From Fidelibacterota bacterium (GTDB lineage Bacteria > Fidelibacterota > Marinisomatia > Marinisomatales > S15-B10), in NCBI GenBank assembly GCA_046861655.1, contig JBHIAI010000024.1, forward strand, positions 1-18,223: a DNA stretch of 18,223 bases, in the 5' to 3' direction. Below the pieces are notes generated by a model, which saw nothing but the letters and a program-made list of their open reading frames with translations, searched no databases and was not told where the DNA came from. Shown one piece after another: positions 1-18,223 of this stretch. Within the stretch, counting starts at the first letter, position 1; each line of letters begins with the position of its first letter. The position numbers were made by a program, and so were the translations under genes.

Positions 1-3000
1 CAGGTCCGGTTCAGAGGATGTAATATTCGTAATCACCACGGGGCCGTCCCCACTGTTCTCGAATCCCAGGTTGAAGGTGTCCGCCTCACCCACCTCGCCC
101 ACCAGAAAGATGTCATCCAGGAAAGCCGATACCTGGCCTGTTCCGAACAATCCCGGAGTGAACGTCACCTCATCCAGCCAGCCGGCGTCATCCCCGGCGG
201 ATCCAGAACTGTTCTTTTCATAACTCCAGCTCACATAGGTGTAATCGCAGACGTTCAAACTTCCCTGCTGCCAGTCCACTTCCCCACTGATGGCGTCCAC
301 TTCATTTCCCTCCTCATACAGACGAAGGAAGTCACCCCCGTCCTCCGAGGAAACCTTCCACCAGAAGCTCACGGTCCCGGCACCGTTGATCTCGATATCG
401 GCATCCAGCCAGGAGTCACCATCATCCCCTATGGCGCCGCTCTGGGCTGCATCGATGCCGTCGTGCGTCACCGTCCCCTGACCGAACCAGGGCTGATCGC
501 CGCCGGTGTACCAGTCGAGAGAAACGTTGTCCACGGCATCAGGAATAGGGATTTCAGGCTCGAACTGACTGCAATCCTCCAGATTGACATCCTGATTTGT
601 CACCTGAACTCCGCCGGAAATACTGATACCTCGCCGCATACCGGCCAGATCCTCTCCCGGATCGCATGTGTCGGGACCGACACCGGCGGAACCGGCTTGA
701 TCCAGAAAGGCTGCCACGGTGTAGCCATTCCCATCGGGGAGATCCGTGAATTCATAGAACCATGTGGCCCCGGGAGACTGAAAATCAACGTACACCTCAG
801 GCTGGACGATGTCAGGAGGATCCATGTCCGGGTCACTTGCGGGGAACCACAAGGCCAGGTAGAGCTGTCCATCGGCGGCCTTGGAAGCGATGAGATCCCC
901 ACTGATGGATCCCGTCCCTACGGGCGGATAGCCCACTGCAAAATCGATATCGAAGGCCGCTCCACCCGAGATTTCAAACTCGCCGCTTTTCCCTTTCATC
1001 TCGCCCTGATCAGGAAAGAAGTTCTGATTCTCATCCAGAAACGCCCTCACCTCCCAGCCGAAGGCGTCATAGATCCCCGGCTCATCAAAGACGTAGAAGT
1101 AGTCCCCGGGAAAGGATGTGCCGGGAAAGGACCGTTCAAAGTCGGGACTCCAGGGCGACTCGTTCCCGGGTTCGAACAGGCCCACGACCAGCTCACCCGA
1201 GCCCGTTTCCGTGGACGTGATGGTCCCGTCCACATGACCCATCACACCGGGGGTGGCCCAGACTTCCATGGTCTCATACCGGATGCCCGCCTGATCGAAC
1301 ATCCACAGTTTGTAGTAATAGTCCTGGCCCTCTACAACATCCACATCCCGCCAGCTGGTCACATTCACGTTCGGTTCGTTCAAAACCGTGGGATCAGCCA
1401 GGGTGACATTCCCCGAGTTGTTGCGATGGATTTCATACCGGTTGAAATCGCTATCCACATCCGGCCACCGGTCCCAGTTGAGGTCGATGAAATCAGTTCC
1501 CACATCGCCTATCCACAGACCCACAGCCCCGGCGATCGGAACCAGTGGAAGATCGATACCTGTGACGGAACCTGCGTCCAGGTTAATTTTCCCTGACGCC
1601 AGGTCCGTCCCGTACCACGCCTCCGCCTCCGGCGTTGGGGGCTGAAAGGTATTGTCTTCATCGAACACCGCGCCCACATAGTAGTCATGTCCCGGTTGAA
1701 GAATGGGATCGTCAATCACGTAGGGAACGGGATTCATGAAGTCCACGGGGGGACCGATAAAAACCGTGGTCACCGGTCCCTCGGGAGGGAACGGCCACTC
1801 AGAGGGATCCTCCCATACATCGACAAACAATTCCCCGTTGGGATAGTTCTGCTCAAAGCCCGGGTACGTGACGTTGCCGGAGATGGTCCGTGTTACCTCG
1901 TTGATTTCGTCCCAGAACGCCTGGGCCCGGCGGCTGGCCTGCCGAAGGGCAGTGAGGTCCGCCCCCGCCACCAGGGCAAAGGCCACCCTGAGGGAATCAT
2001 CAGACGGCAGAGTAAACGGACCCAACGCCTCCACGATCCGGTAGTCATCAGGACTGTCCCCCGAGGTATTATCGATCCCGGGCGACGACAGGGCCCGGAA
2101 AATCTGTCCCTCTGTGACCGGGGTGAACACACCCCCACCCCACCGTCTGAACACAGTGGGATCCTGATCCAGCATCCGGATGCCCGCGTAGCCCCAGTCC
2201 CCCAGATCATTGTACATAAAGGCCAGACGGTCAGGGGCCTCATAGCCTGAGAGATTCACGGTGTAGTCGGAAATATCGAAATCGGCAAAACTGGCCAGGT
2301 ACAGATTGCTGTAGGTCTCCCCGCTCCAGTTGTACAGGGTGTACTCCTGGATGATAAACGGTTCATCTGTAGCGCTGAAAGTGGCCTCCTCCACATCGAT
2401 ATCCAGATCGAGCCTGTCGCCGTAGCCGGTCCAGGTTTCCACGTAGTCGGTCTCCGGATAGACTTCGATGGGATACAAAGGCAGGAAGTCATCTCCGTAG
2501 AGGCGCACCGCAAAAGTATCCAGAACGTCATTCACGAACGCAAAGAGAAACTGGCCGATAAACAGGTGGTGGTTACCGCTCCCCGGGGGGAATTCCAGGG
2601 ATGGTTCCGTACTGCCCGCCGTGGAGGAAATGTTCCTGGATTCTGTCCGCAGGTTCCGGCCGGGGCTGGAGACTTCCGCACGGGTCGATTTCTTCGAGAC
2701 CGTTCCCTCATGGGAGGACGATCCGGAAAGGCCCAAGATACTCGTGGTGGTGGTTGTTCCCACCGAGCCTCCCAGGGCCCCCGTCCAGCCATCATTCCGT
2801 ATGGTATGGGAGATGGCCCCTGTGGCCAGGACGTGGGTGGACACGTCTTCGATGGTGAACACGCCGTCGCTTTCGTCTTCGGCCGAGACCCCCTCGGCAT
2901 CGTATGCGATCACCTTCACCATAGCGGTGGTGACAGGACCACGGGGAATACGCCACCTGAACCGGCCGTCGTTCACCAGGGAGTCCCGTATACTCGTGTA

Positions 3001-5976
3001 ATTGATCCCTCCGTCAGGAGAGTACAGCAGGCTAATCCGGGTCACCGAATCGTCATCGGTGGCCTGCCACCGGATAAGATGAAAGTGATCCTCGCTCCAC
3101 AGTTGTCCACCATTGGGGCTCAACAGTGTCACCGCCGGGGCTACGTTGCCGGCCCCGGGCGTGGCACTGGCCTCACTGGAAAAATCGCTCTCGTTCTCTG
3201 CCGTGTCCACGGCTGTAAGCCGGTAATAGTAGGTAATATCATTGATGAGACCGGTGAGGGTCCGGGTGGTATCGTTCACACTCGTTGTGGAATCCACCTG
3301 GTCGACGGGACCGGGGCTGGTATCTCCATAGATCCGGTATTTGACAACATCCCCTTCCGTATTCTCTGCCCAGGTGAGTTTCACCTGCCCGTCTCCTGCC
3401 TGGGCGATCAAACCGGTAGGTGCCGCCGGAGGCGTATTGTCCCCTGGGGTGACGTTGACCTCATTAGAAAAATTGCTTTCATTGTTCGCCGTATCCACGG
3501 CGGTGATGTGGTAGTAGTAGGTTGTACCGTTGGCTAGACCGGTAATGGTTTTCGTAGTATCCCCGGGGCTTAAAGTGGAATCTACCGGGGTGGTGGGTGC
3601 AGGGGTGGTTCCCCCATAGATGCGGTATTTATCGGCGTCGTCCTCGTCATTCCGGTTCCAGGTAAGAGTAACCTGGCGATCGCCCGCTTCCGCTACCAGA
3701 CCTGTCGGTGCGGCCGGTGGCGTAAGATCCCGGGGAGCGATGGATACCTCAGCGGAATAACCGCTCTCGTTGCCCGCATTGTCCACGGCGGTGATCCGGT
3801 AGTAATAGGTGGTATAATTGATCAGCCCGGTGATGGTTCTTGTCGTATCGCCGATAGTGGTCGTGGAGTCCACCTTGGTAACCGGAGCGGGACTGGTATC
3901 CCCATAAATCCGGTATTTTCCCACGTCCGTTTCCGGGTTCTGATTCCAGGTGAGGGTGATTTCCGTGTCTCCTGCCTCAGCCACAACACCTGTGGGAGCC
4001 GACGGGGCTGTTTCGTCCCCGGGGGTGGCCGCGATCTCATTGGAGTACCCGCTCTCGTTCCCTCCAGTGTCCACGGCTGTGACACGGTAATAATAGGTCT
4101 GTCCGTTGGTGAGACCTGTGAGGGTCGTGGTGGTGTCACCGGCATTGGTTGTGGAGTCCACCTGGGTGGTGGGGGAGGAGGCTATATCGCCATACACCCT
4201 GTACTTGGCCACGTCCCCCTCGGAATTCTTATTCCAGGTAAGGACGATCTCTCCATCTCCCGCGGACGCGGTCAGGCCGGCGGGTGCGCCGGGAGCGATG
4301 TCGATCGCAAAAGTTACCTCCGGGGCAAAACTCGATCCCGTGAAGCCGTTATCGATGGCCTGCAGGGACCAGTAATAGGTACCGTCCGGGAGATTTTTCA
4401 CCGTCCAGCTCGTCCGTTGACCTGCATTCCCCATGGCGGGAACCTTTCTGCGCCCCTCATTCACACCGGAGGTGAACGCCATGGGCGAAACCGTCTCCAC
4501 ACCCCCGGGAGACGTTCCCACTCTCACGTTATAGGTGAGGGCGTTCTGAGCGGTTTCGGTATCCGTGAACTTGGCCCAGCTCAGGTCTGCCGAATTCTCT
4601 GAGATCACATTGATCAACGTCGGGGAGGAGGGAACCGAAGGAGCGGTGTTGGCCGTTTGTGCGTCATTCCGGTACACTTTGGTGAGGGCGTCCGTATCCG
4701 TCTGTCCCGACACGAGAAGATCCAGATCGCCGTCGTTGTCGTAGTCCCCCCACGCCACAGAACTGTGGAATACTGTGGTAAGGTTCGCCCCTATATCGGA
4801 GAAGGTGTCGTTGCCGTTGTTCCTGTACACTGCGGTATGCCGCCCGATGTTGAGTCCTCCGGCAAGGGCTACGTCCAGGTCGCCGTCATTGTCATAGTCG
4901 CCCCAGGCGGCCGAGCTGTAGCTCACGCCCGTGAACCCTGCAGTGGCCATTTCTGTAAAACTTCCCCCGGTGCTCACATCGTTGCGGTAGAGTTTGGTGA
5001 TGCCGCTGGTCCCGTCGTCCCCCGTTACCAGGACATCGAGATCGCCATCGTTGTCGTAGTCGCCCCATTGGGCGGTGCCGTTGAAAACACCGGTAAACGA
5101 AGCGGAGATGTCAGTGAACGTGCCGTCGGTATTCTTGTAAATGCTTGCGATATACGGAGAGGTCCCGGTGTTGTCTCCGGTCATGAGGAGATCCAGGTCG
5201 CCGTCTTCGTCGTAGTCCCCCCAGGCCACGGAGCCTCCGGTAACGCCGGGAAGACCGGCGGAAATGTCACTGAAGGAGCCGTCGGTATTCTCGTAGATTT
5301 GAGATACCCGGGTGCTTCCGTTGAATCCCGTGATGGCCAGATCCAGATCGCCATCGTTGTCGTAGTCCCCCCAGGCCACCGAGCTGAGGTTGACCCCGGT
5401 GATGGAAGCGCCCACATCGGTAAGGGTGGCATCGCCGTTGTTGCGGTACACCTTGGCGATGCGTTCCGTACCGGTGTATCCGGTGATCACCACATCCAGA
5501 TCACCGTCGTTATCGTAGTCCCCCCAGGCGGCATCACCGTTGTAGGTGCCGGTCAACACCGCGGTCAGGCTCTGGGTGAAGCTCCCATTCGTGTAGATCG
5601 CTGCGTTGGATGTTACGGCGGAAAGGTCGGAATCCCCGGTGAGGAGGATATCCAGGTCCCCATCGTTATCAAAGTCCCCCCAGGCTACTGATCCATCGAA
5701 GACCCCCAACAACCCAGCAGAAATATCCACGAACAGGGGAGGCGAAACAGCCGGCCAGAAACCGGCGCCGTGCTGGTAGGATGAACTGCTGAGTCCAGTC
5801 CCTGTGACAGCCTGGCCAACGGTTCCGGTCAGATCGTAGTTGGCGCTGGTGACACTCTCGCCGCCGTTTCCAACCACGCTGCTGGGGATGTCGTAGCTCT
5901 GGGCCACGATACTGTGTTGAAATAAGAAGACGGCTGTGAAAGCAATAAGAATTGGTTTGATCCGGCTCTTTCTCAT
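1..5976 (-). CDS. Giant secreted multidomain surface protein, 3'-truncated (>1992 aa): signal peptide, ~50-aa N-terminal module, 7x VCBS/FG-GAP-like repeats, capping FN3, 4 tandem FN3, Ig-like domain, unnamed FCB-type domain, repeated beta-sandwiches, FN3, CBM-like jelly roll, start of a choice-of-anchor-D/ASH-like Ig domain
   Basis: Hand translation from ATG 5976 (MRKSRIKPILIAFTAVFLFQHSIVA|QSYDIPSS...) stays open to base 1 (...ITNITSSEPDL). Absent from the ORF track because no stop falls inside the window. Contains seven WGD(Y/F)DxDGDLD motifs and FN3 signatures (LTW...YRIY...TYYYR.TAVD). An in-frame alternative ATG lies at 6039 and the upstream in-frame stop is at 6085-6087. Confidence 0.93.
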   Translation of the reverse strand, partial: MRKSRIKPILIAFTAVFLFQHSIVAQSYDIPSSVVGNGGESVTSANYDLTGTVGQAVTGTGLSSSSYQHGAGFWPAVSPPLFVDISAGLLGVFDGSVAWGDFDNDGDLDILLTGDSDLSAVTSNAAIYTNGSFTQSLTAVLTGTYNGDAAWGDYDNDGDLDVVITGYTGTERIAKVYRNNGDATLTDVGASITGVNLSSVAWGDYDNDGDLDLAITGFNGSTRVSQIYENTDGSFSDISAGLPGVTGGSVAWGDYDEDGDLDLLMTGDNTGTSPYIASIYKNTDGTFTDISASFTGVFNGTAQWGDYDNDGDLDVLVTGDDGTSGITKLYRNDVSTGGSFTEMATAGFTGVSYSSAAWGDYDNDGDLDVALAGGLNIGRHTAVYRNNGNDTFSDIGANLTTVFHSSVAWGDYDNDGDLDLLVSGQTDTDALTKVYRNDAQTANTAPSVPSSPTLINVISENSADLSWAKFTDTETAQNALTYNVRVGTSPGGVETVSPMAFTSGVNEGRRKVPAMGNAGQRTSWTVKNLPDGTYYWSLQAIDNGFTGSSFAPEVTFAIDIAPGAPAGLTASAGDGEIVLTWNKNSEGDVAKYRVYGDIASSPTTQVDSTTNAGDTTTTLTGLTNGQTYYYRVTAVDTGGNESGYSNEIAATPGDETAPSAPTGVVAEAGDTEITLTWNQNPETDVGKYRIYGDTSPAPVTKVDSTTTIGDTTRTITGLINYTTYYYRITAVDNAGNESGYSAEVSIAPRDLTPPAAPTGLVAEAGDRQVTLTWNRNDEDDADKYRIYGGTTPAPTTPVDSTLSPGDTTKTITGLANGTTYYYHITAVDTANNESNFSNEVNVTPGDNTPPAAPTGLIAQAGDGQVKLTWAENTEGDVVKYRIYGDTSPGPVDQVDSTTSVNDTTRTLTGLINDITYYYRLTAVDTAENESDFSSEASATPGAGNVAPAVTLLSPNGGQLWSEDHFHLIRWQATDDDSVTRISLLYSPDGGINYTSIRDSLVNDGRFRWRIPRGPVTTAMVKVIAYDAEGVSAEDESDGVFTIEDVSTHVLATGAISHTIRNDGWTGALGGSVGTTTTTSILGLSGSSSHEGTVSKKSTRAEVSSPGRNLRTESRNISSTAGSTEPSLEFPPGSGNHHLFIGQFLFAFVNDVLDTFAVRLYGDDFLPLYPIEVYPETDYVETWTGYGDRLDLDIDVEEATFSATDEPFIIQEYTLYNWSGETYSNLYLASFADFDISDYTVNLSGYEAPDRLAFMYNDLGDWGYAGIRMLDQDPTVFRRWGGGVFTPVTEGQIFRALSSPGIDNTSGDSPDDYRIVEALGPFTLPSDDSLRVAFALVAGADLTALRQASRRAQAFWDEINEVTRTISGNVTYPGFEQNYPNGELFVDVWEDPSEWPFPPEGPVTTVFIGPPVDFMNPVPYVIDDPILQPGHDYYVGAVFDEDNTFQPPTPEAEAWYGTDLASGKINLDAGSVTGIDLPLVPIAGAVGLWIGDVGTDFIDLNWDRWPDVDSDFNRYEIHRNNSGNVTLADPTVLNEPNVNVTSWRDVDVVEGQDYYYKLWMFDQAGIRYETMEVWATPGVMGHVDGTITSTETGSGELVVGLFEPGNESPWSPDFERSFPGTSFPGDYFYVFDEPGIYDAFGWEVRAFLDENQNFFPDQGEMKGKSGEFEISGGAAFDIDFAVGYPPVGTGSISGDLIASKAADGQLYLALWFPASDPDMDPPDIVQPEVYVDFQSPGATWFYEFTDLPDGNGYTVAAFLDQAGSAGVGPDTCDPGEDLAGMRRGISISGGVQVTNQDVNLEDCSQFEPEIPIPDAVDNVSLDWYTGGDQPWFGQGTVTHDGIDAAQSGAIGDDGDSWLDADIEINGAGTVSFWWKVSSEDGGDFLRLYEEGNEVDAISGEVDWQQGSLNVCDYTYVSWSYEKNSSGSAGDDAGWLDEVTFTPGLFGTGQVSAFLDDIFLVGEVGEADTFNLGFENSGDGPVVITNITSSEPDL
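3157..4302 (-). repeat. Four tandem fibronectin type III domains (96-aa / 288-nt period)
   Basis: Units begin DIAP/DETAP/DLTPP/DNTPP (Asp codons at 4302, 4017, 3729, 3441). Each has APxG..A.AGD....LTW..N.E.D..KYR.YG, VDST, and TYYY(R/H).TAVD...NES..S.E. Confidence 0.9.
4665..5735 (-). repeat. Seven VCBS/FG-GAP-like repeats (predicted 7-bladed Ca-binding beta-propeller) in the 1..5976 protein
   Basis: Seven WGD(Y/F)D(N/E)DGDLD motifs about 47-53 aa apart, each followed by (I/V/L)YxN. The DxDxDG loop is an established Ca-binding motif. Confidence 0.9.
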
Positions 5977-6098
5977 TCCCTCAAAACCTTCATTTTCATG
6001 ATCATTGGCCCCTGATACGACGTGATTATCCGGTCTCATTATTCCCTGGTTCTTAACGGCGATTCCTTTGTACGGTTCGGATTCTTACTGTCGTCAAA

Positions 6099-7472
6099 CT
6101 ACCCCTTGCCAATTACTAGCCAGTTTGATCCGTCGGAAATGATCTCAACCCAATTCCATTGCTCATTCACACTAGTACTCGCTCCGCCATCAATGGTTTC
6201 TGTACCGGATGGGTAAACATTCACGTACATAGCAGCAGTGGCTCCGATTCTCTTGATGATGTATCTTCTGCCCTTTATTCCCACGGCAGTAGGTAACGTG
6301 ACGCTCGTGGTTGTAGTGTTGTTTACCAGAATCAGATAGTCAGAAGCTGAAATGGTGTAAGATCCAATCGTCGTAGTAACAGCAGATGTGGCAAAGCTGC
6401 CGCTTATTTCAAAGGTGCTGGTGGGGCTCGTCGTCCCGATGCCGACCCTGCTGTTTGTATCGTCAAAATAGAGGCTCCCCGCACCTCCGAAACTCCCGCC
6501 GTTGTTGTACTGGACCTGACCGTCTGATCCTGCAGGTGAAGCCGACACGGTGGACCAGGAGAGCGTACCCGTCCCATTCGTGGACAGGAGCTGCCCACCG
6601 GACCCATCGGCTGAAGGCCAGGTGTAGGCAACGCCACCTAAAGTCGTTGCGCCACTCACACCAAAAGTACCTGAGACGTCAAGAGTTGTGGTAGGAGTGA
6701 CAGTTCCGATGCCCAGGCGGGTGTTCGCCTCGTCGTATGCGGAGGAGGTACCAAAGTTGATCTTGCCCTTGGTAGCATTCGACGTCGATTCGAGGGTCAG
6801 AGTGCCTGAGGCCGCCGTGCCTCCACTCAGGGTCTGTCCCCCCGTGCGACCGTCAAGGAGCGCGTACTGGGAATGATCGTCATCGGCCAGACCAGAGAGA
6901 CCCCCATGATCCGTCAGACCCGCCTGCCAGGTGCCGACACCACTGGCGTCTGAAGTCAACACGTAGCCGTTCACGGGGCTCGTCGTCAACTTGAATCCCG
7001 TCATCTGCGCTGTTCCGGCAACATCCAATTTGTCAGCTGGAGACGTCGTTCCAATACCCACGTTCCCGCTGGAAGGGAATACATTCGCTGTCCCCAGCAC
7101 GGAAAGGGAATTCAAGCTGTAAGGAGAAGACGTCAACTTGATCCGGGGGGACATCTCTGAATCTGTCCCAACGGTCACTCCCAACCAGTACTGCTTGTCA
7201 AAGTCCAGGCTGAGAGCGGTCACGCTCCCCAATATGACGTTGAAGATCCCGTCCGTGACCGATACAGCCGAATGGGTTTCACTCCAGAGGGACGTGCCTG
7301 CTGTTTCCACGTCGTAGAGGCTGACGGTGATGGAATAGGTCCCGTCGGATACCAGCGTGCCATCACTGTTCTTAAGAATCCCCTGGTAACTGATTGTCCC
7401 GGGAATCTGACCTACGACGACCTGCGAAATCAGTCCCAAAGACAACAGGAAAGTGAGACATGTACGTTTCAT
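6099..7472 (-). CDS. Secreted phage-tail-fibre-like (probably trimeric) adhesin, ~457 aa
   Basis: Start is better placed at ATG 7472 (AAGGAG RBS upstream; MKRTCLTFLLSLGLISQVVVG|QIP signal peptide) than at the track start 7541. N-terminal 'ISYQG.L...G.Y...LYD...LWSETH...V.DG.F.V.LG...WLGVTVG...EMSPR..LTS.PY' domain, three (V/L)GIGT.(S/T)P shaft repeats, a DHGGLSGLADDDHSQY motif, a GSDGQVQYNNGGSFGG motif, and a C-terminal TLP.A...G..Y.IK...TIDG...SDG.NW head. Confidence 0.85.
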   Translation of the reverse strand: MKRTCLTFLLSLGLISQVVVGQIPGTISYQGILKNSDGTLVSDGTYSITVSLYDVETAGTSLWSETHSAVSVTDGIFNVILGSVTALSLDFDKQYWLGVTVGTDSEMSPRIKLTSSPYSLNSLSVLGTANVFPSSGNVGIGTTSPADKLDVAGTAQMTGFKLTTSPVNGYVLTSDASGVGTWQAGLTDHGGLSGLADDDHSQYALLDGRTGGQTLSGGTAASGTLTLESTSNATKGKINFGTSSAYDEANTRLGIGTVTPTTTLDVSGTFGVSGATTLGGVAYTWPSADGSGGQLLSTNGTGTLSWSTVSASPAGSDGQVQYNNGGSFGGAGSLYFDDTNSRVGIGTTSPTSTFEISGSFATSAVTTTIGSYTISASDYLILVNNTTTTSVTLPTAVGIKGRRYIIKRIGATAAMYVNVYPSGTETIDGGASTSVNEQWNWVEIISDGSNWLVIGKG

Positions 7473-7559: not shown

Positions 7560-8282
7560 TTACTGCCCCGGTGTGGGTGGGGGTGCCGGGGGAGCACCGG
7601 GAAGTTCCTCCGGTCCCTGCAGAACAGTGAGATAATAGTAGGCGCCGCCTCCCACCGCGGCCAGGAGCACCGTACCCAGCAGTAGCCGGCCGAAGCCTCC
7701 CTTCTTCTTGGGCTCTTCCGGCTTAGCTTCCGCCTCCGCCTCCTTCGCCGGCTCTGTCTTCTCCACCTCAGCTACTTCAACTTCCACGCCCGCCAGGTCC
7801 TTGGAAACAATCTCCAGAAGATCGATCAACCCTTCCACATCACCACGGTGCTCTCTCTTGGATACCTTCTCAATTCCCCCCGTAGTCACGTCAAACATCC
7901 GTACGTCAATGGTGTAAAGGGCACCTATCTTCCCGATACTGCCGGCCACCATCTTCTCCACACCCAGGAGTTTTCCCACCTCCACGGCACACTCCGCGGA
8001 GGTGCATCCCGTCTGCTGAAATCCCTGCTCCTGCAGCACCATCTCCATCTGACCCCGCTCCACCACCTGAAAATAACCCAATTCCACCATCTCCGACCGG
8101 AGCCTGTCCGTAAGGGTCGCCGCCTCCAGGGCCGAAATCCCCCGACCATCCATATCCAGAACGGCCACGTTCATTTTTTCCTGGGCCACCCCCTTCACCG
8201 GCAGGGAGAACATCAACACCGCGACGGCGAGAACCGAACAGAGCGATTTATGAAATACGGAAGGACGCACTAACTTTATCAT
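7560..8282 (-). CDS. CsgG/HfaB-like (TolB-N-like fold) exported protein with C-terminal hydrophobic helix and Pro-rich tail, 240 aa
   Basis: Signal peptide ending GVA|QEK. Motifs VAVLD, F.VVER..M..VL.EQ.FQQTGC...C.VE.GKLLGV..MV.GSIG.IG..Y.I..RM.DV.TG.I are typical of this family. Followed by a Glu/Ala/Lys/Pro linker, KKK, GGFGRLLLGTVLLAAVGGGAYYYL and LPGAPPAPPPTPGQ. GGGGA lies 7 nt before the ATG. Confidence 0.85.
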   Translation of the reverse strand: MIKLVRPSVFHKSLCSVLAVAVLMFSLPVKGVAQEKMNVAVLDMDGRGISALEAATLTDRLRSEMVELGYFQVVERGQMEMVLQEQGFQQTGCTSAECAVEVGKLLGVEKMVAGSIGKIGALYTIDVRMFDVTTGGIEKVSKREHRGDVEGLIDLLEIVSKDLAGVEVEVAEVEKTEPAKEAEAEAKPEEPKKKGGFGRLLLGTVLLAAVGGGAYYYLTVLQGPEELPGAPPAPPPTPGQ

Positions 8283-8503: not shown

Positions 8504-11500
8504 TCATTTCACCAGCATCATCTTGCGGGTCTGGCGCAGAAGAACTTTTCCCGTGGGTGACGACATTCTGGTGGCGAATACATAGATGCCGCTACTGACC
8601 GCCCGCCCCGAAGCATTCCGGCCGTCCCAGATCACATTGTAGTATCCCGACGGCCTCAGATCGTGATCTATCAGCCTGGCCACCTCCTGACCCAGAAGAT
8701 TGTAGACCGACAAATCCACCACGGCACGATCTTTCAAGGAAAGGATGATGGTAGTCTGAGCGTTAAAAGGATTCGGGAAATTCTGACTGACCTGGTAGGC
8801 GTCAGGATACAGATCCACACCTGCACTGTTGTCCTCCACAAACTCCCGGGTCCCCGCCACCAGTCTCAGGTGATGGACACTGTTCGCACTGGGGACATCA
8901 AAGACATAGGTGGATTTCCACCTGAGGTTCAATGCCGTTTCCAGCGACCTGTCCACAAGGAATACGTCAAAGTCTTCAGGGATTCTTTCAATGCCCTCTA
9001 TCTTCACCCGGGCCGGGCTGTGGGCATCACCGGCCATCACTTCCAGATCCCAGAAATGACCCTCCGTGGACGGGGACCGGAAATCGGTGGTGTACATGTC
9101 CGCATGTTCGCCCCAATCCGGGTGTGGGATCCGAAGAGAGATGCCCCCGGGGAGAAACGGCGGCTCGAAGGCGTCCAGCCTGTCGTACCCATCCAGGGCT
9201 TCACGGTGAACACCGATCTGGTTTACCCCGTCCCGGGCATTCCCGTTCTGCGCATCGATCTTCACCTGCCATTCGCTTTCCGGTCCACTACGCAATAAAG
9301 GATACTCGGGGTCTTCCACGGGCATCGATCTCGCCACTGCTTGACCTCCACCCCTGGGATCGATGTAAAGCCTGGCGGCTTCAGTGGATTTATAGATAAA
9401 CCCAAACCATGGACGTAGATTCCCCGGGACCCGCCATTCACCCTCCCAGGTGAAAACGTTGGGATCACCCTGGATGGATGTTCCATCATCGGCGGTGATG
9501 TTTTCCAGATTGATCTGGAAATCAAAGGGATTGCCGATGAAGTTCCAGTTTCCCGCTTCAAGGTCGATCTCGAAAGGATCGCTGGTACTGACCGTGGTTC
9601 CCTGATCGGTATCGAGCGTTACGCTTCCGGCGGAGATTAAGAAATAGGCCTTTCCCGTCTCGATCCTGGAGATCCTGGGGAACTCGATGTAGCCACCTCC
9701 CCCGTACGTGAAGAATCTCCATTTCGTAGCATCATACGGTCCCAGGTCATCGGTAAGAATGTCCGAAGGCGAATTGGCGTCTGGCAGAATGGGAAAAGAC
9801 AGCAGGTTGTAACTGGCCACTGTTTGACCACTGGGAATTCCCCCTGGCCACCTTTCAGTGCTTAGCTGTCCATTCCCTGGAATGGTCACGATGATGGAGT
9901 AGAATCCCCCGCTTTCCGGAACCCGGGAAAAATTGCCCGCCACATCCTCGGCTTCTATGTAGTACTCCAGCCCAGCGGTGGTCACCTCCGAGCCTGGAAT
10001 GGACCGGCTGGGCATCGCCTCCATATCCAGGGGACCTGTCCACGATGTCAGCCCCCCTCGCCGGTAAAACATCTCGACCCGGTCAATTCCAGACCGGTCA
10101 TCGAAGAACGAAACGGTGATGTCGTCCGTATCCGTGCTCAACATGGCACTGACAACCGGCGTGTGAGAAAGGGACACCGGTGACCGGTCTATCTGGACAT
10201 AAGGAGCGTTGGAGGCTGCGGTGGAATTGCCCGCAAGGTCATATGCGGAAAGGACGGTACCATAATCCGTTTCGTCCAGACTGTCCGGCAGTGTCAATCC
10301 GGTACTGTCAGGCTCAACCGTATAGGCGTTCGTCCCCACCTGCAGTTCGTAGCGGTCCAGTCCCGAGGTCGCATCTTCAGACCTGCTCCATTCAAACCGG
10401 ACGTATGTCTCATTGGTCCACCCCGTTCCCGGGGCCGTCACGGTGAAGTCTCCAGGGGGGACGTTGTCCCATCTCGCCACCACCTGGGCCGAGCTGTCTT
10501 CACTTTCGTTGGCCAATTCATCCATCAACCAGACGGTGATGGGATATTCGCCGTTATCCGGCAACTGGATGTTTTCGATCTGGCTGATGTTGTCTCCCGC
10601 TATCCTGACCGGATCCTCCCCCGAAATCCTGTAGGCGACTCCGGAGATATTGTAGTACCAGGATGGATTGGTCCACGTGAGGGTGAAACTGTTCACCTGA
10701 GTCCAGTCGTCGGGATTAATGACAAGGCCTGCGGGGGGAGGAGGTGCCCGAACCACCTTCTCCAGCACAAAGTAGCTCCCGGAGATGACGGTTCGAACGG
10801 AGGCCAGGGTGGCCCCCACCCTGAACTCCAGTCCCCGGGGGGCATCGGCGGCCACGGCAACTACAACCCCAGCTTCTCCCCCGGTAGTAATGGTATCCTC
10901 GCTAACGATGGTGACGTATGCGGTAGAAGGAATTAGAGTCCAGGCCACGGTGGTCCCTTCGTCAACGGGGTTGCCCTGGGAATCCATGGCGGTGAAAAGG
11001 ATGTCAAAGGTCGTGTCCTGCGGAACGATGGTCACTTCCTGCGGCAGGGACACGATGATGACGGCTCCCCCTTCGAAAGCACCCATGTCGGGATTGGTCC
11101 CGGCCGGCACAGGCCTGTCGGCGCCCAGAATATCCATGGACGGAGCGTTGATGCCGCCGAAGGAGGTGGTCCCTGCCTCCATCACGGGACTGAACGGGGA
11201 AAGGGAGTAATCTCCGTTATCCGGGTCCGAAAACAGGGGGGGAGCGTCCAGGGAGTTGTCCCCCACCCAGGAAACCCCCGCGCTCCCCTCGACATCGTTG
11301 AAGTCAATACTCTTATTGGTGAGACTTTCAACGGACAGGTTATTCCCCAGTGGATTCCCGTCAGAGGTGTTGTCCCAGAGAATGGTATTGAACAGGGCGG
11401 TGAAGAAGTCATCCGTCCCCAGGTTGACTCCTCCCACCGCGGATTGGTTGTTGCCGGTTTCGTCCCTGGCCACATTGCCGGTGATGGTGCAGTTCACGAT

Positions 11501-14500
11501 GTTCACCGCACCGTACTCATAGAAGGTGGTCTGGGGATTGTACTGTTCTCCCAGGTCTGCCAGGATAGCCCCTGCGGTTCCGATGGCACTGGGGTTCGTC
11601 CTGCCACCCACGGCTTCATTCCCGGAAAGGACGCAGTTCACAAGGTCAGCACGGCCATGAATGGCCAATCCGCCCCCCTCCGCTCTTCCATCCGATTCCG
11701 CCCGGTTGTCCCGGAAGGTACATCCCAGGAACGTAACCGGTTCGTAGTACCAGTAATCCACTCCGGAGATGTACACCGCCCCGCCCTCCGCCCAGTTGTC
11801 GGAATTGCTGACATCCACGTAGTTGGAGTCAATCACACAATCTTCAAACGTCGCCGTTCCGGTTCCGATGTGGATCGCCCCTCCCATGGACCAATCAGCG
11901 GTAGAGATGCCGTTGTGACTGATCTTGCACGCCAGGAATTCCGGAGAGGCATAAATCCCGTCAATGAAAACAGCTCCCCCAATGCTGCCGGCTGCTGTAT
12001 TATCCCTGAATTCACACCCCACAAATGTGGGGGCGGCATCGTAGATCCGCACGGCTCCTCCTTCGGTCCCGGCACTATTGCCCAAGAAAATACAGTTGGT
12101 GATCACGGGGGCGGGCCCGTTCTCATCGGAGAAGCTCCATTCAATGTTCATGGAACCACCTGACCAGGAATCCCATCCGTTGATGAATGTGAACCCGGAG
12201 ATGGCGATGGACACGTCCCGGGAAACGCCATCGATGAGAAAATGCCGACCCTGGGATTCCGCGTCGATGACCGTCACATCCGGTCCGGACAGGGACATGA
12301 TGACCACACTCCTGTCAATGTTCATATCCCGGTTGGACGATCCTCCATAGAGTCCCTCCTTCACCAGGATGGTATCTCCGGAACCGGCCGCATCCAGGGC
12401 GGTCTGGATGGACTCGAAAGGCGAAGATTCACTGCCTACGTTCCCGGAAGCCCCGTCCGTTGCCACCCACCATACGGGACCGGCGTAGGATGGAGTAGAG
12501 GAAACCTCTGCCGAAGGGGCTCCGTGAAACCCCTGGGTATCCACCGCCGCCACCCGGAAGTAATAGGTGACGCCGTCGGTTAGACCGGTAGCCTGGTACG
12601 TGGTATCCGTTGAAATATCCAGGGAATCTTCCGGTGCGGGGGTAAATCCCTGGGTCAGACTCATGTATATAAGGTAATAATCGATATCGCCTTCCGGGTT
12701 CGCGTTCCAGGACAGGGTGACCTGCCCGCTGGTTGGGAGGGCGGACAAGCCCGTCACCGGTGCAGGATAATCGGATTCGCCCAGGGGGCTTTCATAGGCG
12801 CCCAGATCGGGATCGGAACCCTCAGGATCGGGACGGGCGTTCCCAAGGATATCGTCCGATGGCGCGTCGAGCCCCTCGAAGGACGCCGTACCGGCGCCCA
12901 GGCAGAAACTGGCCTCGGTGAGGGAATAATCGCCCGTTTCCGGACCGGTAAAGGCGGGATCGGTCACCAGAGAGTTTTCTGCGTTGAACCAGGAATAAGA
13001 GTCCCCGTGTTCCATATCGTTGTACCCGGTTACCGGACTGGCACCGTTGTCCTCTACAGAGGGATTCTGATCGGCAGAATTCCCCCAGATGATGCTGTTG
13101 AACAGGATCAAGTTCTGAACGGAGCTGGACAGATAGATGGCTCCCCCCCATCCCTCGTACCCGCTGGTCACATAGGAGGCCACGTTTTTCGTTAGCGTGC
13201 AGTTGATGAGGGTGACTTCCCCGTACTCATACTGGAAGGTGGAGCTATTGTACTGGCTCGACACATCGATGTTGACCGCGCCCCCGTACCCGTATCCGTA
13301 ATCGGCTCCCCCCGTCGCTGCGTTTCCGGCAAAAAGACAGTTGACAAACCTTGCCCTGGACTGGGCATACACGGCACCTCCGTAGGCATAATCGTTGGGA
13401 CTGGACGAATTCCCTCTGAAGGAGCAGCGGGAAAATGTTACGGGTTTACCCGGTTCCAGATTGTTAAAGGCACCGATAAAGACCGCTCCACCGTAGCCGG
13501 CATAATCGCCGCTCTGAACCCGGTTCGAATCGAAGTCACACTGAGTGAACGTGGCGTGGCCGTCGCCGATATAGACGGCACCTCCGTAGGTGGTCCTGTA
13601 GTCCAGGGCATCGTTGGCCGCGGCATTATGGATAAACGTACACCCTGAAAACGTCGGATCGGAGTTGTCGCCCGCGGACATGATGGCTCCACCGTTGCTT
13701 TCAGTCAGGTTATACTTGAATTGGCACCTCACGAACTTGGGAGACGAATTTATGATGGCAACTGCTCCCCCCTCCCACCATCCGGAAACCGCATTGTCTC
13801 TGAAGACACACTCTTTGAAGGTTGGACTCGACGGTACATCTCCCGACGCGTTAATGTGGACGGAACCGCCGTCACCGTCCGTCTTGAGGCCGTTTTGGAA
13901 CGTCATGCCGACGATCTCAAATGTCGAGTCCTCCCCCGATTCGAAAATGAAATGGCGATCCAGACTTTCGGCATCCAGGAAAGTAGTATCCGCTCCGTGG
14001 GTGGACATGATGACCAAGTTGGATGCGATAAGGCCGGCCGGGTTTACTCCCCGGTTTCCTTCACCGGTGTAGGTGCCGGGCTTTAGCTTGATGGTGTCCC
14101 CTTGGGACACACTGGCCATGGCCGTGGACAGGTCCGCGAAGGGGCTCTCCTCCATCCCCTGGTTTGCGTTGTCGCCGTCCGTTGCCACCCACCACACCGG
14201 ACCCACATAGGCAGGTGTAGCTGAGGCGAATTCACTCAACGCACTGTATTCGCCGCTCGTCGTTCTCGATTTTACCCGGTAGTAGTAGGTAATGCCGTTT
14301 GTCAACCCGGCATCGGTAAAGGTGGAATCGGTTGAGGCCACTGAATCTAAAACAGCCAGGGTCGAAGGATCTGTGCCACGGGAAATCACATAATGGGACA
14401 GATTGGAGGAGCCCGAATGGTGCCAGGTCAGGATGATTTGCTGATGCCCCGGAGTCGCCGTTATATGACTGGGAGCCAGAACGGCAGGGTTCACGTAAAC

Positions 14501-17500
14501 CAGCTGCAGGTCCACTACCTTGTCATCCGTTGTGGCCGCCAGGCTTTCATTGAAGGGATAGTTTCCAGCACCGGAATCACTGTATCCCCGCCGGCCCCGA
14601 TTCGACCCGGCCTGCCGCAGGTAAACACCACCGTTGGAAGAATAGGCACTGTTGTCATGACTGAACTCCACCACAAGATTATCGGCGGCATCCCAATCGA
14701 TGGCGGTGATGGAGAAATGCTCCCAGGCGTCCACCTCAAAATCCTCAACCGCCAGGGTATCCGGCCCGTAGACCACCGAGGTGGTGAGGAAAGAGTCCAG
14801 GGTTGTTTGCTCTGTAAAGGCTGTGGCGACCCTGAAATCATTGAGGTCACGACCGGGCAACTGACTGGGCTTGATCTCCACCCCGAAAACGGTGGCTCCG
14901 GCAGGGACCCCTGCCTGAACGAGATCCTGTGCCAGGTACAGAGATTGGTGCTTAACATCATGGTAATACGTATTGAGGGGATATCCGCGACCGGACGAAC
15001 TTCCTCCTGGAGAAGGGGAACCGGTTGAATCAACGAGCAGTTCAGCCACTTTCAGACCGGGAACCGCACTCACTTCCCCCGAATACCCGCTTTCGTGTCC
15101 GCCATTATCCACGGCCGTGATCCGGTAGTAGTACGTCTGTCCATCGGTGAGTCCCTGGTCCACATAGAACGAATCAGGAGGAGACGTGGCCACCACACTG
15201 TCGATGAAGGTGGTGGCGGGTGAGGACGTATCCCGGAAAATCCTGTACCGTTGAAGATCCGCTTCCGGGTTGTGGTCCCAGGACAGGGTAATCTCCTGGT
15301 CCCCACTGGCGGCGGTGAGTCCCGTTGGCGTGGACGGGGGAACATCCGCAGTGAAGCTCGCCTCAGTCGAAAACGGCGACCCCATGAACCCGTTGTCGAT
15401 GGCCTGGACGCTCCAGAAGTAGGTCCCATCGGTGAGTCCGTTTATGGACCAGCTGGTGTTGTGATTCACATTCCCCAGGTCGGGGAGTCGTCTCTGTCCT
15501 GCGGTGTCCCCGCTGGTGGCAACGTTGGCCATGGGCGAGACCAGGTCGATGCCGCCTGTGGATGAACCCACTCTTAGATTGTAGGTCAGAGCATTTTGGG
15601 CCGTAAGATCATCCGTTGATTTGCTCCAGCTCAAGGTCACCGTATCCCCTGAGACACTGCTGGAAAGACCCGTCGGTGCCGTAGGGGCTGCATTGGCCGT
15701 TGTGATATCGTTGCGGTAGATATTGGAAACGTAGATCGAGCCTGCCCCGGTGTCCCCCACCAAAAGAATGTCCAGATCGCCATCACCGTCATAGTCTCCC
15801 CACTCTCCCGAACCGTAGGACGCGCCACTCAGCGTCAAGCCAGCATTTATGTCAACAAAACTGCCAGTATCGTTCCGGTAGACCCGGGAAACATGAACGC
15901 TGGTTCCTGATCCCCCTAAGTAACCTGTCTGCAGAACATCCAGATCTCCGTCATTGTCGTAGTCGCCCCACTTCACAGAACTCAGGGAAGTCGCATCCAG
16001 ATTGGCGGCAATATCAGTGAAATTGGCCCCATCGTTGTTACGGTAGACCTTCGATACACGGCCTGAACCCGTGTATCCTGCGAGCAGGATATCCAAATCG
16101 CCATCACTGTCGTAGTCCCCCCAGTCCACCGAGCTGTAGTAGACACCCTGGAGAACTGTAGATTGAATGTCTGTGAACGTACCGTCCGAGTTCTTGTAGA
16201 GTTCTGTTACTGCGGCAGACCCGGTGTAACCTGTCAGGAGCAGATCCAGATCCCCATCGTTATCGTAGTCCCCCCAGGCCACCGAGCTGTAGCGGACGCC
16301 AGTCAGCCCCGCTGAAATATCCGTGAAGCTACCCCCGTCATTCCGGTAGATCTTAGAGATCTGGTAGTCTGGCCAGACTCCGGTATACCCCGACAGGGCA
16401 ATATCCAGGTCTCCATCGTTATCGTAGTCCCCCCAGGCCACCGAACCCTCACGGACCCCTATGAGATTTGCGGAGACGTCTGTGAACGTGCCATTCGTGT
16501 TCTGATAGACTCTGGAGATGTACCCTGAACTTCCACTACCTGACAGGAGAACATCTAGATCACCATCATTGTCGTAATCCCCCCAAGCGGCGGAACTGTA
16601 ATAAACACCCTCGAGCCCGGCGGAGATGTCAGAAAAGGTCCCGTTGGCGTTTCCGTACACCTTCGAGATACCCTGCGATCCCGTATACCCTGTCAGAAGA
16701 ATATCGAGGTCTCCGTCGCTGTCATAGTCCCCCCAGGCGGCGGTAGCCCGATACACCTCAGTCAGGCCTGCAGAGAGGTCCGAGAATAGCGACGGGATGA
16801 CGCTCACCTCATTGGAGTAGCTGCTTTCCCTGCCGTCCGTGGCGACGGCGGTGATGCGGTAGTAGTGGATGGTCTCGTTGGTGAGATCTGTAAGGATTTT
16901 TGTAGTGTCGTTGACACCGCCGGTGGTGCTGTCCACTTTCGTGGTGGGATTGGCGGAGGTTCCGCCGTAGATGCGGTAGCGTTGAAAATCACTTTCTGTG
17001 TTGGGAGTCCATGTGAGGGTGACCTGATGACTTCCTGGAGTGGCGGCGAGGTTTGTGGGAGCGGCTGGTGGCAACCTAGGATATATGTAGACCGACCCGG
17101 TTTGGGTATTGTCATAAGGTGCCCCGATCGAAAGGGTGGTACTATCCAGGGAAACTGACCATCCAAATCGATCGCTGGCCGCCCCGTCGCTTGCCAGAAA
17201 TTTATTGTGCTGAGTCCAGCTCGTCCCCTCGCGTTTAAAAATGTAAACAGACCCCGAGGTCGATCCTTTGTCATCATCCCCGTAGGCTCCCACGGCCACA
17301 AACGTATCGCTAATGGAAACAGAAGCGCCAAAATAGTCTGAAGAGGCTCCATCGCTGGCGGTGATCTTGGTCAGCTCGCCCCAGCTGGACCCACTTCGCA
17401 GGAAAATATAGGCGGACCCTGACGCTCCACCGTTGTCATCGTCTCCATCGGCGCCCACAACGAGATAGTCACCACTTATTGAAACGGACGTTCCAAAGAA

Positions 17501-18223
17501 GTCTGAAGAGGCTCCATCGCTTGCCGTGAGTTTGGCCTGTTGAGTCCAGTTGCTACCGCTGCGGACAAAGATATAAGCTGATCCGGAACTGCTTCCTTTG
17601 TCATCATCTCGGTATGATCCGACAACTGCGTAATCTCCCCTAATAGAAACTGACTTGCCAAAAAAATCGCTGGCAGCCCCATCACTGGCAGTGAGTTTTG
17701 CCTGCTGCGTCCAACTCGTCCCGCTACGCACGAAGATGTAGGCGGAGCCTGCATCGCTGGCAACGCTGTTGTCATCGGGACTCCCCACAATGACGTAGTC
17801 TCCATCAATGGCGACAGAATGGCCGAAAAAATGATTGGCAGCGGCGTCGCTCGCAGTCAGCTTCGTTTGTTGAGTCCAATTCGTTCCACTCCGCACAAAG
17901 ATGTAGGCCGAACCGGAGCTAGTTCCGTCGTCATCGTTGTATTGGGCACCCACAATGACGTAGTCCCCGCTCATCACAACAGAAATCCCAAAATAGTCGG
18001 AACCTGCTGCGTCGTCTGCCGTGAGCTTGGCCTGCTGACCCCAGTTGTCTGAACCTCCCTCGTTCCGGTAGAAAATGAAAGCGGACCCGGAACTGGATAC
18101 GTTTCCGTCATCCAAGTAACTACCCACGGCAAGATAGTCACCGCTTATGGCCACGGAATATCCGAAATAGTCGTACGTCTGTCCATCACTGGCCGTCCGA
18201 TTCAGCTGGGTCTGGGCGGACGC
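8504..18223 (-). CDS. Giant surface/adhesin-like protein, 5'-truncated (>3239 aa), with FG-GAP and VCBS propellers, FN3 domains, two parallel beta-helix/choice-of-anchor-Q modules and a C-terminal FlgD-Ig/T9SS type A-like sorting domain
   Basis: The frame is open beyond the track start 18154 to the window edge (ASAQTQLNRTASDGQTYDYFGYSVAISGD), so the true start is outside the window; ASA|Q resembles a signal peptidase I site. TGA at 8504-8506. Repeats and domains are visible in the translation. Confidence 0.95.
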   Translation of the reverse strand, partial: ASAQTQLNRTASDGQTYDYFGYSVAISGDYLAVGSYLDDGNVSSSGSAFIFYRNEGGSDNWGQQAKLTADDAAGSDYFGISVVMSGDYVIVGAQYNDDDGTSSGSAYIFVRSGTNWTQQTKLTASDAAANHFFGHSVAIDGDYVIVGSPDDNSVASDAGSAYIFVRSGTSWTQQAKLTASDGAASDFFGKSVSIRGDYAVVGSYRDDDKGSSSGSAYIFVRSGSNWTQQAKLTASDGASSDFFGTSVSISGDYLVVGADGDDDNGGASGSAYIFLRSGSSWGELTKITASDGASSDYFGASVSISDTFVAVGAYGDDDKGSTSGSVYIFKREGTSWTQHNKFLASDGAASDRFGWSVSLDSTTLSIGAPYDNTQTGSVYIYPRLPPAAPTNLAATPGSHQVTLTWTPNTESDFQRYRIYGGTSANPTTKVDSTTGGVNDTTKILTDLTNETIHYYRITAVATDGRESSYSNEVSVIPSLFSDLSAGLTEVYRATAAWGDYDSDGDLDILLTGYTGSQGISKVYGNANGTFSDISAGLEGVYYSSAAWGDYDNDGDLDVLLSGSGSSGYISRVYQNTNGTFTDVSANLIGVREGSVAWGDYDNDGDLDIALSGYTGVWPDYQISKIYRNDGGSFTDISAGLTGVRYSSVAWGDYDNDGDLDLLLTGYTGSAAVTELYKNSDGTFTDIQSTVLQGVYYSSVDWGDYDSDGDLDILLAGYTGSGRVSKVYRNNDGANFTDIAANLDATSLSSVKWGDYDNDGDLDVLQTGYLGGSGTSVHVSRVYRNDTGSFVDINAGLTLSGASYGSGEWGDYDGDGDLDILLVGDTGAGSIYVSNIYRNDITTANAAPTAPTGLSSSVSGDTVTLSWSKSTDDLTAQNALTYNLRVGSSTGGIDLVSPMANVATSGDTAGQRRLPDLGNVNHNTSWSINGLTDGTYFWSVQAIDNGFMGSPFSTEASFTADVPPSTPTGLTAASGDQEITLSWDHNPEADLQRYRIFRDTSSPATTFIDSVVATSPPDSFYVDQGLTDGQTYYYRITAVDNGGHESGYSGEVSAVPGLKVAELLVDSTGSPSPGGSSSGRGYPLNTYYHDVKHQSLYLAQDLVQAGVPAGATVFGVEIKPSQLPGRDLNDFRVATAFTEQTTLDSFLTTSVVYGPDTLAVEDFEVDAWEHFSITAIDWDAADNLVVEFSHDNSAYSSNGGVYLRQAGSNRGRRGYSDSGAGNYPFNESLAATTDDKVVDLQLVYVNPAVLAPSHITATPGHQQIILTWHHSGSSNLSHYVISRGTDPSTLAVLDSVASTDSTFTDAGLTNGITYYYRVKSRTTSGEYSALSEFASATPAYVGPVWWVATDGDNANQGMEESPFADLSTAMASVSQGDTIKLKPGTYTGEGNRGVNPAGLIASNLVIMSTHGADTTFLDAESLDRHFIFESGEDSTFEIVGMTFQNGLKTDGDGGSVHINASGDVPSSPTFKECVFRDNAVSGWWEGGAVAIINSSPKFVRCQFKYNLTESNGGAIMSAGDNSDPTFSGCTFIHNAAANDALDYRTTYGGAVYIGDGHATFTQCDFDSNRVQSGDYAGYGGAVFIGAFNNLEPGKPVTFSRCSFRGNSSSPNDYAYGGAVYAQSRARFVNCLFAGNAATGGADYGYGYGGAVNIDVSSQYNSSTFQYEYGEVTLINCTLTKNVASYVTSGYEGWGGAIYLSSSVQNLILFNSIIWGNSADQNPSVEDNGASPVTGYNDMEHGDSYSWFNAENSLVTDPAFTGPETGDYSLTEASFCLGAGTASFEGLDAPSDDILGNARPDPEGSDPDLGAYESPLGESDYPAPVTGLSALPTSGQVTLSWNANPEGDIDYYLIYMSLTQGFTPAPEDSLDISTDTTYQATGLTDGVTYYFRVAAVDTQGFHGAPSAEVSSTPSYAGPVWWVATDGASGNVGSESSPFESIQTALDAAGSGDTILVKEGLYGGSSNRDMNIDRSVVIMSLSGPDVTVIDAESQGRHFLIDGVSRDVSIAISGFTFINGWDSWSGGSMNIEWSFSDENGPAPVITNCIFLGNSAGTEGGAVRIYDAAPTFVGCEFRDNTAAGSIGGAVFIDGIYASPEFLACKISHNGISTADWSMGGAIHIGTGTATFEDCVIDSNYVDVSNSDNWAEGGAVYISGVDYWYYEPVTFLGCTFRDNRAESDGRAEGGGLAIHGRADLVNCVLSGNEAVGGRTNPSAIGTAGAILADLGEQYNPQTTFYEYGAVNIVNCTITGNVARDETGNNQSAVGGVNLGTDDFFTALFNTILWDNTSDGNPLGNNLSVESLTNKSIDFNDVEGSAGVSWVGDNSLDAPPLFSDPDNGDYSLSPFSPVMEAGTTSFGGINAPSMDILGADRPVPAGTNPDMGAFEGGAVIIVSLPQEVTIVPQDTTFDILFTAMDSQGNPVDEGTTVAWTLIPSTAYVTIVSEDTITTGGEAGVVVAVAADAPRGLEFRVGATLASVRTVISGSYFVLEKVVRAPPPPAGLVINPDDWTQVNSFTLTWTNPSWYYNISGVAYRISGEDPVRIAGDNISQIENIQLPDNGEYPITVWLMDELANESEDSSAQVVARWDNVPPGDFTVTAPGTGWTNETYVRFEWSRSEDATSGLDRYELQVGTNAYTVEPDSTGLTLPDSLDETDYGTVLSAYDLAGNSTAASNAPYVQIDRSPVSLSHTPVVSAMLSTDTDDITVSFFDDRSGIDRVEMFYRRGGLTSWTGPLDMEAMPSRSIPGSEVTTAGLEYYIEAEDVAGNFSRVPESGGFYSIIVTIPGNGQLSTERWPGGIPSGQTVASYNLLSFPILPDANSPSDILTDDLGPYDATKWRFFTYGGGGYIEFPRISRIETGKAYFLISAGSVTLDTDQGTTVSTSDPFEIDLEAGNWNFIGNPFDFQINLENITADDGTSIQGDPNVFTWEGEWRVPGNLRPWFGFIYKSTEAARLYIDPRGGGQAVARSMPVEDPEYPLLRSGPESEWQVKIDAQNGNARDGVNQIGVHREALDGYDRLDAFEPPFLPGGISLRIPHPDWGEHADMYTTDFRSPSTEGHFWDLEVMAGDAHSPARVKIEGIERIPEDFDVFLVDRSLETALNLRWKSTYVFDVPSANSVHHLRLVAGTREFVEDNSAGVDLYPDAYQVSQNFPNPFNAQTTIILSLKDRAVVDLSVYNLLGQEVARLIDHDLRPSGYYNVIWDGRNASGRAVSSGIYVFATRMSSPTGKVLLRQTRKMMLVK
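8507..8810 (-). other. C-terminal secretion/sorting domain (T9SS type A-like / FlgD Ig-like)
   Basis: PDAYQVSQNFPNPFNAQTTI...VYNLLGQEVARL...WDGRNASGRAVSSGIY...TRKMMLVK matches the established QNYPNPFNP / YN..GQ.V / WDG.N..G..V.SG.Y / KM.L.K pattern. Confidence 0.9.
11070..14480 (-). repeat. Tandem duplication of an [FN3 + right-handed beta-helix + choice-of-anchor-Q-like cap] module
   Basis: Copies at ~14480-12790 and ~12765-11070. Both have Y.GPVWWVATDG, GDTI....G.Y.G..NR, DAES..RHF, repeated GGA(I/V) and C.F..N motifs, and GDYSL...S....AGT.SF.G..APS.DILG..RP.P.G..PD.GA(Y/F)E. Confidence 0.88.
15705..16790 (-). repeat. Seven VCBS/FG-GAP-like repeats (beta-propeller) in the 8504..18223 protein
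   Basis: Seven WGDYD(S/N/G)DGDLD motifs. An exact 32-nt DNA repeat lies at 16254-16285 and 16413-16444. Confidence 0.9.
17085..18200 (-). repeat. Seven FG-GAP (integrin-alpha-like, FG-GAP_2 type) repeats
   Basis: Seven units of the form (T/L)A.D.....(Y/F/R)FG.SV....D...VG...DD.....GS.YI(F/Y) at a ~55-aa period. An exact 22-nt repeat lies at 17335-17356 and 17500-17521. Confidence 0.9.

Follow-up and report, generated by a model that had tools for sequence, protein, structure and literature searches.

A stretch of 18,223 nucleotides from a Fidelibacterota bacterium (the window, meaning the whole stretch analysed; contig C22 of genome G000, with every long gene on the minus strand) raises the question of how a secreted fibre carrying neither an anchor nor a sorting signal could be kept on the cell surface. 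The fibre gene (6099..7472, minus strand; open reading frame (ORF) 7472 to 6102) encodes a 457-residue protein with a signal peptide, a base domain (ND) resembling that of the MAT fibres of Bdellovibrio, a phage-fibre-like shaft, and a small tip. It is followed by the gene for a large scaffold, or carrier, protein (1..5976, minus strand), in which a 50-residue module (5752..5901, minus strand) stands directly after the signal peptide as a candidate fibre-docking peptide. Sequence comparison suggests that this module is a portable docking peptide for the base of the fibre trimer, probably with one peptide per trimer, and a probability of about 65% was assigned to this reading.

The fibre and its surface-sorted neighbour

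By inspection, the fibre has a basic-hydrophobic signal peptide (residues 1-21; 7410..7472, minus strand) and a mature start at Q22, the residue from which its homologues align. The sole early cysteine is residue 5, outside any lipobox, and neither a hydrophobic helix nor a barrel was seen at the C-terminus. No Pfam family was matched, and Pfam and NCBIfam revealed no type IX secretion system (T9SS) C-terminal domain (CTD). The first-pass annotation, which had described a Sec-exported fibre lacking a CTD, an autotransporter barrel, a lipobox, and a transmembrane anchor, was thus borne out by inspection and both databases. PHROG matches were confined to the shaft and tip. The tip (approximately residues 361-457; 6102..6392, minus strand) matched phrog_37034 (E 5e-10), a domain common to some other ND fibre tips, and resembled the fibres of loci L308 and L319 in phmmer comparisons. 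From its fibre-type repeats and its S74-bearing relatives, we infer that the fibre trimerizes.

The scaffold has a signal peptide of 25 residues counted from the ATG at 5976 (5902..5976, minus strand; assigned by inspection, with P0075 beginning at the same point), and its mature part opens at 5901-5752 with exactly the module sequence quoted in the first reading of this DNA. Behind the module lie a seven-repeat FG-GAP propeller, with repeats beginning at residues 99-409, and then Fn3 repeats (4597..5751, end approximate, minus strand; Pfam). The giant protein encoded upstream of the fibre holds a propeller-Fn3 unit 49.75% identical to that of the scaffold over 601 columns; this unit has seven repeats and lacks the module. 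Because a homologous propeller does without it, the module is not a propeller blade; that identity was rejected, the seven scaffold repeats being complete without it and the module being fused elsewhere to unrelated proteins. The earlier claim that the module is unrelated to the propeller behind it therefore stands.

The scaffold gene leaves the window into contig C78, whose overlap with the start of the window agrees at 49 of 51 bases and whose frame-1 translation extends the last scaffold residues. From run X2, a public contig of 1,824 bases bridges window positions 1-1466 and C78 positions 1-409, with length and depth agreeing in both tables; as run X2 is possibly related to the source sample, it supports the join without counting as independent biology. 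The part encoded on C78 closes with a T9SS type A CTD (TIGR04183, 25.9 bits against a cut-off of 23), which answers the question, left by the first reading at base 1, of whether the scaffold terminates in such a domain. The full protein comprises ~2,746 residues by arithmetic (1,992 + 771 - 17). With its signal peptide, its CTD, and SprA and PorV encoded in the genome (both above cut-off), the scaffold is a T9SS type A cargo protein.

A local scan of the same genome returned 32 CTD-like ORFs, some without N-termini at contig ends, and the module was present in two ORFs, each directly after a fibre gene. The second pair lies on contig C77, where a fibre gene cut at the contig start and ending in S74 precedes the module-bearing gene. 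This second fibre (locus L370, G000:C77, 1-1371), whose N-terminus is lost at the contig end, has an S74 chaperone and, in its shaft, a repeated motif ~26 residues long.

Tight pairing of fibre and module genes across genomes

The first-pass annotation had pointed to a pattern in which fibre genes lie beside CTD-bearing carriers, and this adjacency proved strongly enriched and far above chance (75 of 77 genomes and 124 of 130 modules, as detailed below). Counts are reported instead of p-values because the related genomes are not independent. Among 101 genomes of the phylum of the window, a single-sequence search found ND in 16, and the module occurred in 10, all within those 16. Of the 15 module matches, 13 adjoin an ND gene, one adjoins the truncated fibre on C77, and one sits at a contig start; genomes of this phylum supplied 7 of the 67 rows of the module alignment.

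A larger sample came from the phylum of genome G101, in which 167 genomes yielded ND in 107, the module in 77, and both in 75, with the module in only two of the 60 ND-negative genomes. For 90 of 131 module matches, an ND match from the list lay within 9 kb; the strand was shared in every case, with the module downstream in 77 and upstream in 13. Inspection of 40 of the 41 other modules placed 23 near an ND gene and 11 after a contig-cut or broken fibre tail, as judged from ORF ends; three were undecidable at contig edges and three had no fibre. The total for this phylum was therefore 124 of 130 examined modules beside a fibre gene. Conversely, a module match lay no more than 9 kb away for 95 of the 151 ND matches listed.

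Fibre loci were also collected by ND alone, giving 148 loci of which 73 had both flanks visible. A hidden Markov model (HMM) of the module built only from a search of 1.84 billion representative sequences identified an adjacent module in 53 of these 73. Among CTD ORFs, 68 of the 91 that adjoin a fibre carry the module versus 6 of the 44 that do not; it is nearly restricted to fibre-adjacent carriers, irrespective of their other domains. Four genomes whose fibre has no module neighbour were searched, and module genes were present elsewhere in each. Neither a CTD nor a module was found on any ND protein among 184 stored proteins or 281 locus ORFs (overlapping sets in which some ORFs are cut), and natural ND-module fusions were absent from the ND proteins examined.

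The pairing extends to other lineages in more divergent form. A small partner gene adjoins the fibre in 18 of 20 regions examined in the phylum of G103 (probably Bacteroidota), the module being scored by HMM in four of them and a divergent look-alike being seen by eye in nine more. Three of 14 fibre regions examined in the phylum of G105 have a module-like neighbour without a T9SS tag, and these three, together with locus L122, weakly match the pilus protein PamT. In L122 (5542-11092, plus strand), the module-like segment opens a long protein with an Rhs-like end. Fulvitalea pFA10 carries a module-CTD gene followed by a short ND gene, and in Herpetosiphon pHAU01 the fibre Haur_5099 is followed by an unannotated ORF of ~95 residues that bears the module and no T9SS tag. 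Locus L342 (1635-10753, minus strand) combines a fibre and a small module gene with a subsequent 2,274-residue Rhs protein containing SpvB and TcdB-middle domains.

Relatives of the module and of the fibre base

The search of 1.84 billion representatives, whose matches come without genomic context, returned 57 module matches, of which 48 were used for the first HMM; the nine left out were seven repeat proteins that looked unrelated on visual inspection and two partial matches. As seen by eye, the module is fused to T9SS CTDs, short YLP-ending tails (presumably of a Chloroflexi type), a dockerin (NF041540), and large unrelated proteins. The commonest carrier is a module-CTD protein of 170-200 residues without a stalk, and many carriers amount to little else than a signal peptide, the module, and a tag. 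Two or three module copies each were observed in P0080, P0082, P0094, and P0110, some of them on peptidase-like or large immunoglobulin (Ig) proteins.

The module profile displays near-invariant G-Q and G-F-W motifs with aromatic positions 4, 23, and 42; Ser, Thr, and Gly are abundant in the module. In loci L032-L048 from the phylum of the window, fibre genes repeatedly precede a conserved CTD family of 2,100-2,300 residues with divergent modules, some without G-Q. A threefold period-19 repeat in the module is suggestive only, with 82 of 5,000 shuffles reaching the joint score in a post hoc joint test. Folding of the module alone from 142 sequences gave no confident fold (pLDDT 48, pTM 0.19), and the best score in an Atlas look-up (0.83) is a lead at most.

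The only family matched by many modules was CPR_pilus_PamT (NF058579), named for the candidate phyla radiation (CPR). Among the module-only rows, 17 of 67 reached E <= 0.1 (the best being 1.6e-5); whole small carriers matched down to E 5e-7, and small fibre-adjacent genes at E 2e-6 to 1e-3. The window's own module gave no PamT match. All matches were limited to profile positions ~5-107, the N-terminal third, and reached 18-33 bits against a cut-off of 240; identification of the modules as full-length PamT with a pilin Ig domain was accordingly rejected. The genome of the window has one PamT match, which contains stops and is distinct from the module. PamT is predicted at the tip of the Pam pilus and described as a truncated Ig domain, and a tail-fibre-like gene is central in pam neighbourhoods, although no link between that gene and PamT is drawn in the available sections of the article (Troman et al., 2026; PMC13278184). 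The present system is similar in that part of the PamT profile resembles the module, far below cut-off, and that CPR proteins carry ND, but differs in that the scaffold is a T9SS cargo protein and not a pilin.

The base domain of the fibre (residues 22-125, ~104 residues; 7098..7409, minus strand) was predicted by AlphaFold2 with confidence as an Ig-like beta-sandwich (pLDDT 87.8), and an Atlas structure match puts it in PF30789. It matched NF053851 (Bdello_MAT_N, NCBIfam) at 35.1 bits (E 1e-8), below the cut-off of 60. Bdello_MAT_N was matched by 26 of 28 aligned ND homologues at E <= 0.05 (best 1e-8), and no other family matched more than two of the 28; in the phylum of G104, none of 61 genomes had NF053851 above cut-off. 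As its score lies below the cut-off, ND is set outside MAT membership and is, on this profile evidence, distantly related to the MAT base. The first-pass account of the N-terminal domain had missed this kinship. No Foldseek match at E <= 0.001 was found in PDB or BFVD and no sequence match in PDB, the best structural match (VIA, Z 6.9, root-mean-square deviation 2.8, 83 aligned) being that of a generic sandwich.

ND is widespread: of 7,998 proteins scored, 861 matched at E <= 0.001; a two-sequence CPR profile gave 619 among 7,995, and its named top matches were mostly Patescibacteria. By phylum, ND occurs in 39 of 121 genomes (G103) and 12 of 101 (G105), in addition to the 107 of 167 (G101) and 16 of 101 (phylum of the window) given above. 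The homologues range from 250 to 1,400 residues, with ND in common and divergent regions behind it that include S74, Collar, LamG, and other domains (precomputed Pfam). Genomes G103, G325, G353, and G272 have 10-17 ND matches each (17 in G103), an expansion resembling the 21 MATs of Bdellovibrio. In P0132, three tandem NDs in one chain (residues 24-428) precede Ig-like domains together with a murein endopeptidase domain; this arrangement was counted in favour of docking to a trimer base.

The fibre is likely a MAT-like variant, an adhesive trimer of the kind found in Bdellovibrio. As in the MAT fibres of Bdellovibrio bacteriovorus, a conserved N-terminal base is joined to a variable phage-fibre-like shaft and tip, both S74 and non-S74 forms exist, and several paralogues may occur per genome. 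Differences are the length of 457 residues against ~630-1,150 for the MATs named in the available sections of the article, the T9SS-bearing host, and the adjacent module proposed here as a partner, none being identified for the MATs in those sections (Caulton et al., 2024; PMC10769870). The matches of shaft and tip to phage families, and the S74 or Collar domains of relatives, would also suit a tail fibre belonging to a prophage, a tailocin, or a contractile injection system, its neighbour being incidental. However, a signal peptide is present, three IMG/VR queries and 50,697 phage records yielded no confirmed ND relative, Baseplate_J was not matched in the 93% complete genome, and the remaining genes of the window encode secreted or surface-type proteins; this origin is largely refuted and highly improbable. 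CPR-type queries recovered no ND locus from IMG/VR, and plasmid searches gave nothing useful.

Proposed docking and display, and the remaining genes

According to the docking model, both the fibre and the scaffold would cross the inner membrane by Sec. The module would then fold upon binding the trimer base, each 19-residue repeat contacting one ND, and the fibre would be held on the cell surface, carried at the N-terminus of a scaffold stalk of ~2,700 residues. Attachment would be supplied by the C-terminal tag of the carrier, possibly with T9SS co-export of the fibre in diderms, since the fibre has no other evident outer-membrane route. The tag would differ by lineage (T9SS CTD, Chloroflexi-type YLP tail, dockerin, and perhaps the CPR pilus-tip pilin PamT), so that the module would act as a portable adaptor that joins a single kind of fibre base to many different anchoring systems. 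It is probably an uncharacterised docking adaptor, and its conserved role is likely display rather than T9SS export, because it also occurs on non-T9SS carriers. The T9SS-sorted carrier of the first-pass annotation is upheld for this locus by the scaffold CTD, the non-T9SS carriers having been missed. Overall, that interpretation is partly supported: the gene adjacency, the position of the module outside the propeller, and the scaffold CTD all came out in its favour, and its central claim, binding of ND by the module, is retained as a likely proposal. No title or abstract describing the fibre-module pairing was found in a literature search that left most subscription papers outside its range.

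Tagless proteins are held on surface scaffolds by cohesin-dockerin pairs and by donor-strand attachment. The proposed system is similar in that an anchorless protein would be displayed by means of a short, portable module borne by a surface-sorted carrier. It differs in that the module is not a dockerin and would have the base of a homotrimer as its partner, and no relation to these systems was found in sequence or fold.

Several observations weigh against docking. No module was matched in 32 of the 107 ND genomes in the phylum of G101, beside 19 of the 73 fully visible fibre loci even with a wider HMM, or beside 11 of the 14 fibre regions examined in the phylum of G105, and three modules (L264, L268, and L287) have no fibre nearby. 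Two ND proteins in the phylum of G105 end in a hydrophobic stretch of their own. Covariation between the module and ND over 100 pairs, a test of low power, gave no signal (best z 4.0 against a mean of 4.45 for shuffled maxima), and the three weak period-19 repeats were not significant in the first test (p 0.063). The ND match to the MAT profile is not only below cut-off but also limited to positions 14-78 of 162. Finally, the genomes counted include non-independent relatives, and some alignment rows derive from searched genomes. ND proteins of loci L350 (3876-4697), L351 (2063-2776), and L053 (7881-9953) have a C-terminal hydrophobic stretch with basic residues, and L350 and L351 have no module neighbour.

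The absent covariation, the fibres without a module neighbour, and the richness of the module in Ser, Thr, and Gly would fit two genes co-expressed in one adhesion apparatus whose products make no contact, with the module as a maturation, glycosylation, or ligand-binding segment and the fibre anchored by other means. This is quite unlikely, however, given the near restriction of the module to fibre-adjacent carriers despite their otherwise unrelated domains and the near-invariant G-Q and G-F-W, which suggest a specific interface. Contact might also be transient, the module serving as an export escort or folding chaperone from which the fibre is later released or otherwise held. T9SS CTDs are usually cleaved at the cell surface, and the stalkless module-CTD protein that is the commonest carrier would suffice for such a task. 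An escort is nevertheless considered unlikely, as the module is also found on stalk-like proteins of 2,000 residues and on short proteins without a T9SS tail such as the Herpetosiphon ORF, where escort across the outer membrane is not expected.

The docking model may be widened, tentatively and with more doubt than confidence, to a single 50-residue pseudo-threefold peptide that serves as the general socket of MAT-type trimers across bacteria, whether on T9SS CTDs, PamT, or other tails, and including the Bdellovibrio anchor. With a T9SS CTD, the module would let an untagged trimer leave the cell and be displayed in bacteria of the Fibrobacterota-Chlorobiota-Bacteroidota (FCB) type; on PamT, it would mount a host-binding fibre at the CPR pilus tip; and with other tails it would serve Chloroflexota and others, making it a display adaptor independent of the secretion system. 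The module or a relative would then be the missing MAT anchor in Bdellovibrio, where the invariable N-terminal domain presumably binds a surface element still to be identified, as stated in the available sections of the original description (Caulton et al., 2024; PMC10769870); those of a 2026 review (PMC13689555) name no anchor for MAT fibres.

If docking is correct, T9SS bacteria would display, and perhaps export, trimeric proteins that have no CTD. The fibre-module pair is common, judging by the frequency of ND in the four phyla sampled. Small soluble parts would make testable both the surface target of the MAT base domain and host recognition by CPR Pam pili, questions raised in the available sections of the two articles (PMC10769870 and PMC13278184, respectively).

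Two further genes lie upstream of the fibre. Directly adjacent is a gene for a 240-residue CsgG/TolB_N-like protein (7560-8282, minus strand; Pfam) with a C-terminal hydrophobic helix and three paralogues elsewhere in the genome; it was excluded from the system because no homologue was found near other fibres in the loci compared. The giant CTD protein (8504..18223, cut, minus strand) contains two FG-GAP propellers, Fn3, and beta-helix repeats, and its module-free propeller-Fn3 unit makes it an internal control rather than a demonstrated member of the system. Its region preceding the CTD is ~30% identical to the C78 part of the scaffold, with weaker similarity to the C77 carrier.

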